Shown here: positions 39,514 to 45,065 of the stretch, piece after piece
How the letters are laid out: each line of letters begins with the position of its first letter
Position numbering within the stretch: position 1 is the stretch's first letter
NCBI GenBank assembly: GCA_964576615.1
Contig: CAZNUU010000001.1
Coordinates: forward strand, 164,226 to 228,225
DNA from: an uncultured Candidatus Saccharibacteria bacterium
GTDB taxonomy: Bacteria > Patescibacteriota > Minisyncoccia > Phycocordibacterales > DATDWN01
Direction of reading: 5' to 3'
DNA: 64,000 bases
Program-made: the position numbers and the translations under genes
The notes under the pieces: model-generated
Told to the model about the DNA's origin: nothing
The model's database searches: none
Seen by the model: the letters and a program-made list of their open reading frames with translations, nothing else

Positions 39514-39536
39514 CAAATTTCCATTTATTTTAATAA

Positions 39537-39566
39537 TTGACAGATACATATAAACCGTGCTATAAT
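39537..39566 (+). promoter_or_regulatory. consensus sigma-70-type promoter with a strong Shine-Dalgarno, driving the GC-rich ORF at 39586.
   Basis: TTGACA (39537-42), 18-bp spacer, TATAAT (39561-66), then AAGGAGG (39572-78) 7 nt before the ATG. Confidence 0.6.
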
Positions 39567-39585
39567 TGAAAAAGGAGGCAGACTC

Positions 39586-39915
39586 ATGGAACTTGTTCCG
39601 TACCACCTGGCAGCCATCGTGGCTGGTCAGATCGCGCAGCAGGACTTCAGGGTAACCCTCAGCGAGTACATCTCGCGTAAAGGAAGCCCTTGGGTCATCA
39701 CCGTCGGGGAATCCTACTGGCAACGGCACCTGGTGATCGAAACGGTCATCCATGGTGGCAACGATGCCACGTTGGCGATTCTCGCCAACGAACAGTCAGT
39801 CTTGCGTACCCTCGACATCGACACGACGAAGGTCGACCGCAGGGTCTCGCTCAAGGAGCTCCTCGCCGGACGCTACAGTGGCATAAGGCAGGCTCTCGAT
39901 GCCGTTCATGCGTAG
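39586..39915 (+). CDS. hypothetical protein (109 aa), strongly GC-rich cargo gene.
   Basis: ORF with a perfect promoter and RBS, followed by two hairpins (39929-39955 and 39964-39995); no recognisable motif. Confidence 0.45.
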   Translation: MELVPYHLAAIVAGQIAQQDFRVTLSEYISRKGSPWVITVGESYWQRHLVIETVIHGGNDATLAILANEQSVLRTLDIDTTKVDRRVSLKELLAGRYSGIRQALDAVHA

Positions 39916-40000
39916 CGATGTTCGAAACGAGTGGGAGAGATGTATTCTCCCACTCGGCACTCTCGATAATTCAGAAGAGTTATCGGGATTTTTTGTATTT

Positions 40001-40039
40001 AAAAATCAATAGCCGAGAAACGTGAACCGTTTCTCGGCT
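40001..40039 (-). terminator. Rho-independent terminator for the minus-strand gene 40054..40671.
   Basis: 12-bp stem AGCCGAGAAACG/CGTTTCTCGGCT followed on the minus strand by a T-run. Confidence 0.65.
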
Positions 40040-40053
40040 AGAAGCTCAACCAC

Positions 40054-40723: not shown

Positions 40724-40800
40724 GTGGTGCGCCCACCAGGGATCGAACCTGGGACATTCTCCTTAAGAGGGAGCTACTCTACCAGCTGAGTTATGGGCGC
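40724..40800 (-). tRNA. tRNA-Lys (anticodon CTT) with encoded CCA.
   Basis: The reverse complement gives GCGCCCATAACTCAGCTGGTAGAGTAGCTCC-CTCTTAA-GGAGAATGTCCCAGGTTCGATCCCTGGTGGGCGCACCA. Confidence 0.85.
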
Positions 40801-40839
40801 AGTATTTTTATTATACTCACTTTTATTCAGACTTCAATT

Positions 40840-40871
40840 TCTATATCATACGATATATCGTATGATATAGA
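40840..40871. promoter_or_regulatory. 32-bp perfect palindrome (operator-like), copy 1.
   Basis: TCTATATCATACGATATATCGTATGATATAGA, 2 nt beyond the regulator stop and about 40 nt upstream of the tRNA-Lys 5' end. Confidence 0.6.
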
Positions 40872-40872
40872 T

Positions 40873-41259
40873 TTAAAATTGCAAAAAATGTTTAAATCTA
40901 TCTCTGCCAACTCTAGGAGGTATTATTTTTTTGATTAATGTTTGGAAACTTTTTTGAAGCTTTATTTCTTTTATAATATTGTCATACTTCCCTATCTCAT
41001 AGCTATCTGAGATTCTGGCTACGGTCGATGGACTAACTTGTAATATATTTTCAATTGCATAAGAAGTTTCACCCTCATCAATCATAACTATCATAGCCAG
41101 TCTTTTAGCAAGCATTATTTTCTCTGTTTTGGTCAATACCTCATCAAAAAATACTTTTGTTTTACCAGACCGAACAAGATTTTGAATATTTTTATACAGT
41201 TGCTTGTTTATTTCTATAAATTTATTCCTTTCTAATAATTTTTTTGAAATATGTGGCAT
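40873..41259 (-). CDS. TrpR-family YerC/YecD-like HTH DNA-binding protein.
   Basis: ...VFFDEVLTKTEKIMLAKRLAMIVMIDEGETSYAIENILQVSPSTVARISD... matches the YerC pattern (FFDDLLTPNE...LAKRL...GxTYxEIxxxTGxSxxTVxR). Confidence 0.5.
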   Translation of the reverse strand: MPHISKKLLERNKFIEINKQLYKNIQNLVRSGKTKVFFDEVLTKTEKIMLAKRLAMIVMIDEGETSYAIENILQVSPSTVARISDSYEIGKYDNIIKEIKLQKSFQTLIKKIIPPRVGRDRFKHFLQF

Positions 41260-41264
41260 TTATA

Positions 41265-41288
41265 TATCATACGATATATCGTATGATA
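41265..41288. promoter_or_regulatory. 24-bp perfect palindrome (operator-like), copy 2, identical core to copy 1.
   Basis: TATCATACGATATATCGTATGATA, 5 nt upstream of the regulator ATG and about 50 nt upstream of tRNA-Leu(TAG). Confidence 0.6.
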
Positions 41289-41339
41289 AGAACAACTAGT
41301 TATATTGGGATGTTTGTGATATATTTCCTCTATTAATTT

Positions 41340-41420
41340 GGGCGAGTGGTGAAATGGCAGACACGCATGCCTTAGGAGCATGTCCCGCAAGGGGTGGAGG
41401 TTCAAGTCCTCTCTCGCCCA
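41340..41420 (+). tRNA. tRNA-Leu (anticodon TAG).
   Basis: GGGCGAG...anticodon stem CATGC/GCATG with loop CT-TAG-GA, long variable arm TCCCGCAAGGGGTG, T-arm GGAGGTTCAAGTCCTCT; followed by terminator AAACTGGC-gttca-GCCAGTTTTTG (41425-41449). Confidence 0.8.
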
Positions 41421-41617
41421 CAAGAAACTGGCGTTCAGCCAGTTTTTGTGCGGACTAGAGAGGACTTGAAGACCGATTGAGATATTTTTGGAGTTACGAG
41501 CAAAAATATCCAATTGGGATACTGATCGTGTAACGATCAAGTCCGCTTGCTAAAAATAGTTCCTGAACTATTTGACTTTTTTTAAAAAATCGATAGATTG
41601 GCCGAAGAGAGGATGAC

Positions 41618-42715: not shown

Positions 42716-43936
42716 ATGAATGGTGTGAGACCACAGCGACTTCCGGAGAGCCACGCGAAAGCGGCGCTCATCCTGATGGTCGCACTCGTGGTGAATCTGG
42801 CGCTTTTCGGGACAGCGGTCCTCATGATCCTCTTCGGAAGAAGTACGGGATCGTGGTGGGATACGCTTTCACAGGTCAACTTGGAAACGGGAGGGGTCTT
42901 GATCCTTCTCATCCAAGTCTTTCACGCTTTAAACAGCGTGAAGAACGTGAACCTCAACCAGCAGGCAATTCTGCTGCTGTTTGGGGCATTCGTGAAGTAC
43001 GTCGAGCCGGGGCTCATTTATGTGCCCTGGGGTTTCTGCAGGTTGCTTCGAGCGACCACCGAGACGATCGAGAAAGACGTCCCGGCAGACTCACGGTTCA
43101 TAGACCACAGCGATGTTACCGATCAGACCACCGGTGGAACGGGAGTAATCCGAAAGGGCTACTTCCCTCCCATTCGAGTGACCTTTGCACCAGCAAAGGC
43201 TGCGGAAACAATCGAGGTGGGCGGTGAGAGGATCACGATTCCGGCGGACGATCCCTACGGCAAGAGAAATACTGCCGAAGTGGAGTTCTCCTACGGTTTC
43301 GAGATCTACGACTACGCGCGAGTGGTAAAGCGGTTCGGCACTGACGATCCAATCGGCAAGGCCAAGAACCAGCTGGACGACGTCGGCATCGGAGTCGTAA
43401 ACGACGAGTTGTCGCGAATGACAACCGCCAGAGCGATGATGAGTCAATCAGCGGTAGCGAACAAGATCCGGGATACTCAGTCTACCGAATCGGCAGACTG
43501 GGGAGTTCAGATCCTCTTCGTTCGCTTGAAGCCGTTTGGGTTCAGTCACAAACTGAACACTGCGGTCAGACAAGCAGCGGAGTCGTTTGCGCTGAAACAG
43601 GCAGTCGTCGTCGCCTCAGAAGGCGAACGTGAGAGACTCACCAACGTCGGCACGGGCACAGCAGAAGCAGAACGTCTGCTTTTGGAGGCACGGGCCAAGG
43701 GTGAAGCGGCGCTCGCCAAGGTCGCAGAGACACCTGGTGGCAAGTACGCCATGGCGGTCCGAGAAATCGGGCAGGCTGTGACGGCTGCCAGGGCAGTCGT
43801 CGTTCCGGGAGATAATCTCCTCGGAGCGGTGGCAAGTGCTGCGGCACTGGTCAAACAAGTCGGTGACGTAACGGAAACCGGCACAACCGGCTCAGCAAGC
43901 GGAAGCAACACGCGACCGCCTGCATCGAGACCATGA
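42716..43936 (+). CDS. SPFH/band-7 (stomatin/flotillin-like) membrane protein, strongly GC-rich.
   Basis: N-terminal TM, then AILLLFGAFVKYVEPGLIYVPWGFCRLL...(SPFH core) and a flotillin-like Ala/Glu coiled coil ERLLLEARAKGEAALAKVAE. Confidence 0.6.
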   Translation: MNGVRPQRLPESHAKAALILMVALVVNLALFGTAVLMILFGRSTGSWWDTLSQVNLETGGVLILLIQVFHALNSVKNVNLNQQAILLLFGAFVKYVEPGLIYVPWGFCRLLRATTETIEKDVPADSRFIDHSDVTDQTTGGTGVIRKGYFPPIRVTFAPAKAAETIEVGGERITIPADDPYGKRNTAEVEFSYGFEIYDYARVVKRFGTDDPIGKAKNQLDDVGIGVVNDELSRMTTARAMMSQSAVANKIRDTQSTESADWGVQILFVRLKPFGFSHKLNTAVRQAAESFALKQAVVVASEGERERLTNVGTGTAEAERLLLEARAKGEAALAKVAETPGGKYAMAVREIGQAVTAARAVVVPGDNLLGAVASAAALVKQVGDVTETGTTGSASGSNTRPPASRP

Positions 43937-43946
43937 GGTGTGAGAG

Positions 43947-44714
43947 ATGATCATCGCAGCGGTCGTCGTGGTGCTCGCAGCCATTTACATTTGGCTGCGA
44001 GCACAACAAGATCGAGACAGCAGAGGTATTGCGCGGGAGAGGCAGGAAGCCCCTCCCGACCAGGCAGATACGCCCCCGCAACCCGAAAGGGATGCGGATG
44101 GCGACTTCCCTTGGTACAAGTGGTGGAAGAGGCCCGGGTGGTGGAAAGAGAACATCTTTACCATTCCACTCGGAATCCTCCTCGGCCACATCATCGTCGC
44201 TGTCGCGACTCCAGATTTGTACTTCGAGTACATCTGGAGTTCGTGGCAGTTCTGGGCGCTGCAAGCGGTGATCGTTATCGCCGCCTGGATGATTCCGCAA
44301 GGAAATGTCCAGTACCATCCGAAGCTTGGCAAGATCATTGTCGTTACCGCTCTGCTAGCTGTTGTATATGTCTGGGGAAACAAAGCCCTGGATGATGCAC
44401 AGAAAAGCGCAGCGGCATCGAACAATGCTCAAGCCAGCTCATCGACCCAGAACACCCCGCCACCGAACAACGGAGGCAGGATCGTGATCACCGCCCCGCC
44501 GGTCTCGCAAGAGCCGACGGGTCGCATCGCACTACCACCGAGAGCCGTGCTCTCGGCGAACAAGCCGTTCACAATTTTTCAACTCGACGAGAGGGGAAAA
44601 GAGGCCTCCTACGACGGAGGTCCGGGCATGGAGGGGGTTCATCTCCCGCCATCTCCCTACGCCAGGTTCCGGTCAAAATCAGAAGAACCGGTCCTGATAA
44701 CCTTCATCCAGTAA
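43947..44714 (+). CDS. polytopic membrane protein, possible NfeD-like SPFH partner, GC-rich.
   Basis: 4 TM helices plus a C-terminal soluble beta-rich segment; followed by terminator CCCCCCCGCA-tacg-TGCGGGGGGG (44742-44765). Confidence 0.35.
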   Translation: MIIAAVVVVLAAIYIWLRAQQDRDSRGIARERQEAPPDQADTPPQPERDADGDFPWYKWWKRPGWWKENIFTIPLGILLGHIIVAVATPDLYFEYIWSSWQFWALQAVIVIAAWMIPQGNVQYHPKLGKIIVVTALLAVVYVWGNKALDDAQKSAAASNNAQASSSTQNTPPPNNGGRIVITAPPVSQEPTGRIALPPRAVLSANKPFTIFQLDERGKEASYDGGPGMEGVHLPPSPYARFRSKSEEPVLITFIQ

Positions 44715-44780
44715 CTGTACGCAGTTTGTACATTCATATAGCCCCCCCGCATACGTGCGGGGGGGATTCGTTTATACGAG

Positions 44781-45065
44781 TTAGAGATTTAGAAACGATC
44801 TAGCCGTAGGAACATCACTTGGCGCAATGCCAAAAGTATCGAGGGTGAATTTTATAAGACCGTAGACAGAAAACATTATAACTAGACCCACAATACTCCA
44901 GAGTATTGCATTACGAGCCTCGTCCCTATCCGTAGAGTCAGCACCGAGCCTGAGAAATCGAACAACACTGTAGAAAAAATATGCAAAGGCTAGGGCAAAG
45001 CCGAGCGTAATTATGGGATTGAGAATAACACTATTTACATTATAGAGAAAAGTCGTGATAGTCAC
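44781..45065 (-). CDS. pilin-like small membrane protein, paralog A (no signal peptide; possibly truncated).
   Basis: Shares the two-helix core LxFALAFAYFFYSV...AILWSIVGLVIMFSVYGL with five upstream paralogs. Confidence 0.4.
   Translation of the reverse strand: MTITTFLYNVNSVILNPIITLGFALAFAYFFYSVVRFLRLGADSTDRDEARNAILWSIVGLVIMFSVYGLIKFTLDTFGIAPSDVPTARSFLNL

Follow-up and report, generated by a model that had tools for sequence, protein, structure and literature searches.

The closest known counterparts of the system reported here belong to the TrpR family, whose members bind palindromes of 18-20 bp and often autoregulate (PMC9413887). Within this family, Bacillus YerC, i.e. HisR, is a histidine-responsive repressor that acts on 20-bp palindromes; the operator consensus is cacTTTAnnnnnnTAAAgtg for HisR and TGTACTnGTnnACnAGTACA for TrpR, and about half of the hisR genes are reported to have an operator of their own, which implies autoregulation (PMC9413887). 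Here we describe a TrpR-family gene that is enclosed by two copies of one palindrome, its putative operators, in a stretch of 64,000 nt (hereafter the window) of contig CAZNUU010000001.1, positions 164,226 to 228,225, from an uncultured Candidatus Saccharibacteria bacterium (assembly GCA_964576615.1). Gene regulation in the Candidate Phyla Radiation (CPR)/Patescibacteria is poorly understood: few transcription factors have been annotated in this group, to our knowledge no operator has been defined, and a search of the available literature retrieved no description of this protein family or of this palindrome in CPR bacteria. The elements of the locus that concern the regulator are the following:

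40873..41259, minus strand: TrpR-family gene, 128 aa (open reading frame (ORF) with a match to Pfam PF01371).
41263..41288, no strand assigned: putative upstream operator, with a 24-bp perfect palindrome at 41265-41288 whose centre lies 17 nt before the ATG.
40840..40871, no strand assigned: putative downstream operator copy, a 32-bp perfect palindrome with its core at 40844-40867, 1 nt past the stop.
41266..41271, minus strand: putative -10 hexamer TATGAT of the regulator gene, located in the ATG-proximal operator arm and read from the sequence.

The 24-bp core, TATCATACGATATATCGTATGATA, is found at 40844-40867 and at 41265-41288 and has no other match in the 64-kb window at up to 3 mismatches, while 0 of 100 dinucleotide-preserving shuffles yielded a match. 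The two copies are identical over 26 nt (40844-40869 / 41263-41288), or over 31 nt when 97% identity is accepted. Within the same 64 kb, a search with the 14-bp centre at up to 3 mismatches gave no third credible copy and a half-site search recovered only the two known ones; in Rfam, no RNA family covers the window palindromes. An earlier note on this DNA had reported that the core occurs twice and brackets a TrpR-family gene between tRNA genes that face outward, and the sequence search of the 64 kb confirmed this: both tRNA genes point away from the palindrome-gene-palindrome unit. The 5 nt that the note gave between the palindrome and the ATG also stand, but the gap between the stop and the other copy is 1 nt, not 2.

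The encoded protein matches the Pfam model Trp_repressor (PF01371) over residues 19-90 with 36.7 bits (cut-off 27, E 4.4e-9) and scores 28.2 bits, i.e. below the cut-off of 42.2, against the NCBIfam YerC/YecD equivalog TIGR02531. The closest solved structures by sequence are the TrpR-like structural-genomics proteins 3kor, 3g1c and 3frw (E ~1e-2). An AlphaFold model of the protein is all-helical, with seven helices and a pLDDT (predicted local distance difference test) score of 83, and the top 33 Foldseek hits in the PDB are all TrpR or TrpR-like (3kor, 3frw, 3g1c), at E-values of only 0.05-1, with target-normalised TM-scores of ~0.64-0.82 and probabilities of 0.92-1.0. Judged from sequence and model, the protein is most likely a TrpR-fold helix-turn-helix (HTH) dimer. 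It carries the recognition-helix motif VSPSTVAR and a C-terminal extension with the basic tail PPRVGRDRFKHF.

The family to which it belongs is large: among 1.84 billion representative proteins, a profile search returned 1,412 clusters (at 50% identity) with E<=1e-10 and 2,918 with E<=1e-3. The best 150 family clusters listed are mostly 128-145 aa long, and the homologues whose source is named derive from Parcubacteria/Paceibacterota metagenome-assembled genomes (Taylorbacteria, Zambryskibacteria and others). Two segments, namely LTxTExxMxAKRLAxI (window residues 43-57) and the N-terminal MPH(I/V)S (residues 1-5), are nearly or fully invariant among proteins of 33-66% identity; they could form a ligand pocket or the dimer core, or reflect the conserved 5' end of a leaderless mRNA. 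With E. coli TrpR and with HisR/YerC of the Firmicutes the family has in common the PF01371 domain, the predicted all-helical fold, the small size and an operator of the ~20-bp palindromic type. TrpR and HisR, however, measure ~100 aa or less, whereas the Paceibacteria family measures 128-145 aa and has the C-terminal extension, and the Paceibacteria operator, TCWTACGATATATCGTAWGA, differs from those of HisR and TrpR given above. The greater length, the basic-tailed extension and the deviating operator set this family apart from HisR as a separate clade, and it is only distantly YerC/HisR-like. There are no his or trp genes nearby, and a Pfam check of the genes at the regulator loci found no his gene. 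A second operator past the stop and dispersed terminator-like copies, both of which we find here, are not described for HisR/TrpR in PMC9413887. What is new in the present case, we infer, is a TrpR-family autoregulator gene enclosed by two co-evolving operators, the sequence of which is reused at terminator-like sites in related genomes.

Homologous loci were collected by a protein-seeded scan of metagenome contigs, which yielded 80 loci encoding proteins with 33-66% identity to the window protein; among these, 58 non-redundant loci had both flanks, and for each of them the flanks of 150 nt on the two sides of the gene were compared for a common stretch of at least 12 nt. In at least 43 of the 58 loci the two flanks have such a stretch of >=12 nt in common, with palindromic arms of >=9 nt on either side, whereas control regions 1.2 kb off have no more than 10 nt in common; most of the other loci have palindromes that appear degenerate by eye. 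No matching downstream copy was present within 150 nt at L132/L133, L151 and L167, L133 being truncated on that side. The bracket was seen in 7 out of 7 of the loci examined first. For instance, at L001 and L004 (63-66% identity) ATCTTACGATATATCGTAAGAT lies a few nt before the ATG and a longer palindrome with the same core right past the stop, with no tRNA gene nearby, and the same layout is found at L005-L008, down to 43% identity. The palindrome centres lie mostly 11-37 nt from the ATG on the upstream side and mostly 9-21 nt from the stop on the downstream side. Synteny with IF2-RbfA or with tRNA-Lys is retained across homologues at 43-66% identity. It is the bracket, not the tRNA genes, that constitutes the conserved feature.

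Some of these loci are more elaborate. Taylorbacteria MHRX01 has two regulator paralogues (L090 and L096), each with arrays of 2-3 palindromes per side, the sites being of the TCATACG type at one and of the TCTTACG type at the other; tandem arrays of sites are present at L013 and L044 too. At L005:7332-8664 (Taylorbacteria MHRF01000001) the regulator gene is preceded, at a distance of 1.3-2.7 kb, by a diversity-generating retroelement with an RVT_1 reverse transcriptase and bAvd.

Within a locus the two copies match, and between lineages they differ. Variants that are alike in both copies include TACAGCGCTGTA (L166), TTATCATATATGATAA (L173), CTTACAGTATACTGTAAG (L179), GCTTCGATATATCGAAGC (L190), GGTACAATATATTGTACC (L201), GTATGATATATCATAC (L206), ACCGATATATCGGT (L008/L144) and, furthermore, CGATATACCGGTATATCG. 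The four residues with which the recognition helix begins (S76-P-S-T in window numbering) track the core of the operator, in counts that ignore phylogeny: SPST pairs with CGATATATCG, which occurs in 0 of the 11 SPTT loci, and the core partner of SPAT is TCATATATGA. The pairings of helix start and operator are:

SPST: ACGATATATCGT in 32 of 39 loci.
SPTT (n = 11): almost always CA...TG cores, CAATATATTG or CAGTATACTG.
SPAT (two separate 60%-identity clusters): ATCATATATGAT.
TRQT: ATGATATATCAT.
SEAT: TACAGCGCTGTA.
S[I/V/L/T/S]ST: C, G or T replaces A at +-6, i.e. [C/G/T]CG...CG[G/C/A].

The correlation between helix and palindrome is confined to the core positions. Such co-variation would be the pattern expected for direct readout of the palindrome by the protein.

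The position of the upstream copy provides a further clue. An operator centre exactly 17 nt before the ATG is shared by many of the closest homologues, such that arm positions 6-11 (TATGAT in the window, from 41271 down to 41266; TAAGAT elsewhere) fall at -12 to -7 relative to the A of the ATG, and the arrangement TAWGAT, 6 nt, ATG recurs in homologues. Where a lineage has its operator 25-37 nt upstream, a TATAAT-like box precedes the ATG by 5-6 nt at several loci, L187 and L193 for example. A Shine-Dalgarno sequence was not found in any homologous locus checked, and there is no room for one. As -12 to -7 is the canonical place of a -10 element for a transcript that begins with the A of the ATG, the mRNA of the regulator is apparently leaderless. 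The overlap suggests that a bound dimer would occlude the promoter of its own gene, i.e. negative autoregulation.

Because the bracket is conserved, co-varies with the protein and overlaps a -10-like hexamer, it is very probable that the palindromes are the binding site of the TrpR-like protein. The proposed mechanism is as follows. The TrpR-fold dimer would read the 20-24-bp palindrome as double-stranded DNA, and on the ATG-side copy, which overlaps the -10 hexamer and the spacer of its own promoter, the bound protein would stop its own synthesis. That the protein binds these palindromes and autoregulates we consider probable, though well short of certain. The part of the earlier note that proposed an autoregulated repressor is in keeping with this, since the ATG-side copy is placed to repress and the bracket, the co-variation and the -10 overlap agree, the binding itself being deduced from the sequence comparison.

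The copy past the stop would be a second operator, acting most probably by dimer-dimer bridging or looping over ~420 bp, or else as a roadblock or hairpin that seals the tiny unit; either way, the expression of the regulator would be set only by the level of its own protein. Our confidence in any specific role of this second copy is much lower than that in binding and autoregulation. Two operators a few hundred bp apart are well known from lac O1/O3, gal OE/OI and lambda OL/OR, and lambda has its repressor gene between OL and OR. The locus described here resembles these dual-operator looping systems in that the regulated unit is enclosed or flanked by two identical operators at a comparable distance from each other, but unlike those of lac, gal and lambda the operators abut both ends of a single 390-bp ORF, and they do so without helical phasing. 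An operator-ORF-operator layout is an unusual design for an autoregulated gene.

The palindrome is not restricted to the regulator loci. A pattern scan with YCWTACGATATATCGTAWGR, one genome per species, retrieved at least 119 stretches, and the dispersed sites, counted after exclusion of 13 non-CPR matches that look like coding sequence or chance, number at least 136 in at least 50 assemblies, with at least 13 in the top assembly. Near the protein-seeded loci, the 447 kb of flanks contain 5 extra copies (~1.1 per 100 kb), whereas an estimated ~0.005 copies would occur there by chance; at the observed density the absence of further copies from the 64-kb window is unremarkable. The counts of location, tracts, mismatches and arms that follow are among the matches listed, and those of location leave out the regulator's own intergenic regions. 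Convergent intergenic regions are occupied in 21% of cases, tandem ones in 12% and divergent ones in 5% (convergent 15/71 vs divergent 4/80, p=0.003). Tracts of A4+/T4+ flank 24 of 106 sites on both sides, versus 5 of 305 control positions (p=3e-11). With respect to the 20-bp consensus, 136 sites have no mismatch, 8 have one and 3 have two, and beyond that there are none above background. The arms are perfectly symmetric over >=14 nt in 45% of the sites, the outer sequence being specific to the site. In related genomes the same protein would probably sit on some ten further near-perfect copies, mostly at gene 3' ends with the features of bidirectional terminators, and the protein is probably a genome-wide palindrome-binding factor, not a pathway-specific repressor.

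A number of dispersed sites of this order has precedents. Tus with TerB, RTP with IRI and KorB of RK2 with OB each combine about ten dispersed high-affinity sites, one of which lies beside the factor's own gene and doubles as its operator. The family described here is similar in having dispersed sites plus a site at its own gene, while the folds of Tus, RTP and KorB differ from its fold and the Ter sites are asymmetric and polar. One further explanation, which overlaps with the favoured one, likens the protein to ParB-parS, MatP-matS, Tus-Ter or RTP-Ter: it would organise the chromosome or form roadblocks, the ten or so palindromes of a genome would serve as structural or termination sites, and those beside the regulator gene would only provide autoregulation, as TerB does for tus. 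The roughly ten near-perfect and strongly conserved sites per genome, which lack conserved neighbours and are mainly intergenic and at 3' ends, would fit such a role, and the C-terminal extension beyond the TrpR core could bridge; the sites are palindromic, though, and lack the polarity of Ter sites. We regard a chromosomal role of this kind as unlikely.

The preference for convergent regions and the strong enrichment in flanking A/T tracts also bear on another possibility, namely that the palindromes are mere hairpin terminators or structural repeats like the repetitive extragenic palindromic (REP) sequences, placed around the gene without relation to its product. Many dispersed copies do look like bidirectional intrinsic terminators, that is, an A-tract, a perfect hairpin and a T-tract in a short convergent region; the arms are symmetric well past the conserved core, the core lies within a ~130-bp repeat in NZBM01 (see below), and the downstream copy in the window folds stably as RNA (-20.6 kcal/mol, z = -6.4). 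A hairpin, on the other hand, has no need of a 20-bp core that is kept across numerous groups of Paceibacteria, according to the record titles Taylor-, Zambryski-, Campbell-, Kaiser- and Wolfebacteria, and unlike ordinary terminators the stem is both conserved and AT-rich. A purely structural role leaves the fixed position 17 nt before the ATG of one gene and the co-variation with the recognition helix unexplained, as well as the placement, in almost all lineages, of two of a genome's approximately ten copies on either side of one and the same 390-bp gene. Moreover, the window copies and most gene-flanking copies have no T-tract, the latter seldom having A/T tracts at all (both tracts in 1 of 30), and a terminator scan called neither window copy. 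That the palindromes are structural repeats alone is therefore very unlikely. The possibility, raised in the earlier note, of a REP-like repeat spread over the genome and unrelated to the gene was borne out in its first half, since the palindrome is dispersed genome-wide in related genomes, and contradicted in its second, since it is clearly tied to the gene.

Several results weigh against the reading of the palindromes as operators of an autoregulated, genome-wide factor. The co-variation counts ignore phylogeny, and the A or T flavour at +-8 shows no correlation with the recognition helix, identical helices occurring with both flavours. Measured from centre to centre, the two copies lie 419-584 bp apart and show no helical phasing, a result that is neutral with regard to looping at such a distance. 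The downstream window copy has no U-tract, the sequence that follows on the gene strand being AAAUUGAAG. Clustering of 170 proteins encoded beside the sites revealed no conserved targets: apart from the regulator itself there is no large recurrent family, and the few small clusters include its syntenic neighbours. Finally, the symmetric, site-specific arms and the near-absence of degenerate copies are unlike an ordinary regulon and hint at an additional process at the level of DNA or RNA.

A more far-reaching proposal is a sequence-specific protein-terminator system. In this proposal the TrpR-fold family of Paceibacteria and the near-perfect palindromes, which would double as bidirectional terminators, form a roadblock or insulator system, or else an HTH-based counterpart of the REPtrons, and only the gene of the factor itself would invariably have a site on both sides; we put it forward as a speculation that is rather unlikely to hold. 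If true, streamlined CPR genomes would mark or control where their transcription units end by means of a DNA-binding protein dedicated to this task, and we know of no description of such a protein in bacteria. More generally, the results provide a candidate protein-operator pair for ~1,400 sequence clusters, in which the SPST, SPTT and SPAT variants could serve as a recognition code; the reuse of an operator sequence at terminator-like sites is as unusual as the layout of the gene itself, and in compact genomes the two together may show how a regulator is insulated or how transcription-unit ends are marked.

The comparison with REPtrons leads to a third type of explanation, i.e. that gene and palindromes together are, or were, a mobile selfish cassette resembling a REPtron or a degenerate insertion sequence (IS), the dispersed palindromes being solo footprints or landing sites. 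In a variant, the protein is an end-binding or regulatory subunit, comparable to InsA of IS1 or OrfA of the IS3 family. The architecture is that of the REP-associated tyrosine transposase (RAYT) genes and their REP sequences: the gene is tightly flanked on both sides by a dispersed palindrome, which is often found at gene 3' ends, and the type of repeat co-varies with the type of protein. The dispersed copies are almost all perfect, some genomes have identical 36-bp versions at several loci and one has a ~130-bp repeat that looks like a miniature inverted-repeat transposable element (MITE), the genomic context differs among homologues, and there are weak matches to the HTH models of IS630- and IS30-type transposases. 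These cross-matches lie far below the thresholds, however; the protein matches only TrpR/HTH models and is a repressor-like HTH protein, not the Y1/HUH (IS200/IS605-like) transposase of REPtrons. A catalytic domain is absent from it, and its surroundings do not consistently include a recombinase or transposase. Where REPtrons count tens to hundreds of copies per genome, the palindrome counts ~10, with a core kept across many genera. At the loci seen, the gene is usually single-copy, the one exception being an assembly with two paralogues; the IF2-RbfA or tRNA-Lys synteny is kept down to 43% identity, the protein is highly conserved over the ~1,400 clusters at 50% identity, and searches of phage, plasmid and IMG/VR collections yielded no homologue, a palindrome search of IMG/VR giving one lone match. 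A selfish cassette is accordingly an improbable explanation. The mobile or addiction-like module that the earlier note had offered as an alternative gains no support from this evidence, and there is no second gene: a toxin-antitoxin pair was rejected, as a single ORF lies between the palindromes and the other ORFs of >=30 aa are short, overlapping and unsupported.

In NZBM01 (isolate ARS1360), ACCAAAAACCTTACGATATATCGTAAGGTTTTTGGT lies in the middle of the ~130-bp repeat, which is itself a long imperfect palindrome, has a MITE-like look and occurs at L060:6700-6860, L077:7690-7850, L104:6400-6560 and L118:2780-2940. It matches no Rfam family. In the same isolate the palindrome is found 117-133 nt downstream of tRNA-Phe, tRNA-Ser and tRNA-Gln. 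Not every copy is intergenic: at L049:5882 (CAYZCN01) the palindrome lies in frame within an apparent miaA-type gene, as ...LRYIVRKGKVPIIAGGTGFYV... The 20-bp pattern was also found in Gemmatimonadales (L010, L021, L059, L108, L121) and in Campylobacterales (L029, L042, L109, L125). These and the other non-CPR matches (Ruminococcus among them) were considered as instances of the same system and set aside as chance or coding conservation; several lie within called ORFs, and the flanking sequence is alike inside each group. Other functions considered for the palindrome, and rejected, were a DNA-uptake sequence, for which ~1 copy per 100 kb is too sparse by orders of magnitude and which leaves the fixed position before the ATG unexplained, and a restriction site, the core containing by inspection neither an EcoRV nor a ClaI site.

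The tRNA genes that adjoin the bracket in the window had led the earlier note to a further suggestion, namely that the regulator also gates the transcription of both. On this reading the protein would act on the two tRNA genes as their dedicated repressor or activator, and the palindromes would be the operators of their promoters. The relevant features are:

40725..40800, minus strand: tRNA-Lys(CTT), downstream of and co-directional with the regulator gene; recurs in some lineages.
40810..40837, minus strand: tRNA-Lys promoter-like TTGAAG-16-TATAAT (consensus scan, 10 of 12 positions; a pattern match only).
41340..41421, plus strand: tRNA-Leu(TAG), divergent from the regulator gene; a neighbour not kept at other loci.

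The palindromes lie 39 nt from tRNA-Lys and 51 nt from tRNA-Leu, just upstream of the inferred -35 regions and with their centres ~52-56 nt from the inferred tRNA starts, and a scan finds TTTATA-17-TATGAT within the ATG-side copy, aimed at tRNA-Leu. In the protein-seeded set a tRNA gene lies within 300 nt downstream of the regulator gene in 8 of 70 loci, compared to ~2.6% expected (p=5e-4), and 4 of these 8 are tRNA-Lys(ctt), co-directional as in the window; overall, the loci other than the window at which tRNA-Lys(ctt) is located downstream are five, L007, L013, L140, L170 and L204, with a similar distance at L013, L170 and L204. This downstream enrichment, however, is largely one inherited synteny, so that the loci are not independent, and most homologous loci have the full bracket without a tRNA gene. 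On the upstream side a tRNA gene within 300 nt is present in 1 of the 70 protein-seeded loci, where it is co-directional; the divergent one is unique to the window, and with it the symmetric module of tRNA, palindrome, regulator, palindrome and tRNA dissolves as a conserved arrangement. Neither are the dispersed copies enriched beside tRNA genes (12/58 vs 83/465 other intergenic regions, among the matches listed). Both tRNA genes, moreover, have promoter-like elements that are closer than the palindromes: for tRNA-Lys the scanned site, which starts 2 nt outside the extended palindrome, and for tRNA-Leu a candidate extended -10 element, TGaTATATT at 41317-41325, 14 nt before the gene, recognised by eye. 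With brackets that lack tRNA genes at L001 and L004, neighbours in 1 of 70 loci upstream and 8 of 70 downstream, and promoter-like sites of their own, a dedicated control of the two tRNA genes is quite unlikely, and the claim was removed as unsupported. With centres ~52-56 nt upstream of the inferred tRNA starts, the operators lie outside the core promoters but at a distance from which a bound protein might still affect RNA polymerase; a local side effect on both tRNA promoters is therefore possible, although the conserved function of the module lies elsewhere.

Some other features of the window deserve mention. At 41401-41470 there is an inverted repeat of 27 nt, 81% complementary, formed by TTCAAGTCCTCTCTCGCCCACAAGAAA and TTTTGTGCGGACTAGAGAGGACTTGAA, through which tRNA-Leu(tag) is able to base-pair, by its T-arm and 3' acceptor, with a sequence 16 nt downstream; it could be a terminator on the 3' end of the tRNA, or the remnant of an integration site. 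The stretch 43001-45000 has a GC content of 0.54-0.58, compared to ~0.41 elsewhere in the window, covers most of an SPFH/Band-7 gene (42716-43936) and may be foreign DNA. Between tRNA-Leu(taa) and a membrane-protein gene, ~540 nt (39515-40053) with a GC content of ~0.49 hold no convincing ORF and gave no match in Rfam even at E<=1; a terminator-like hairpin is located at 40010-40040.

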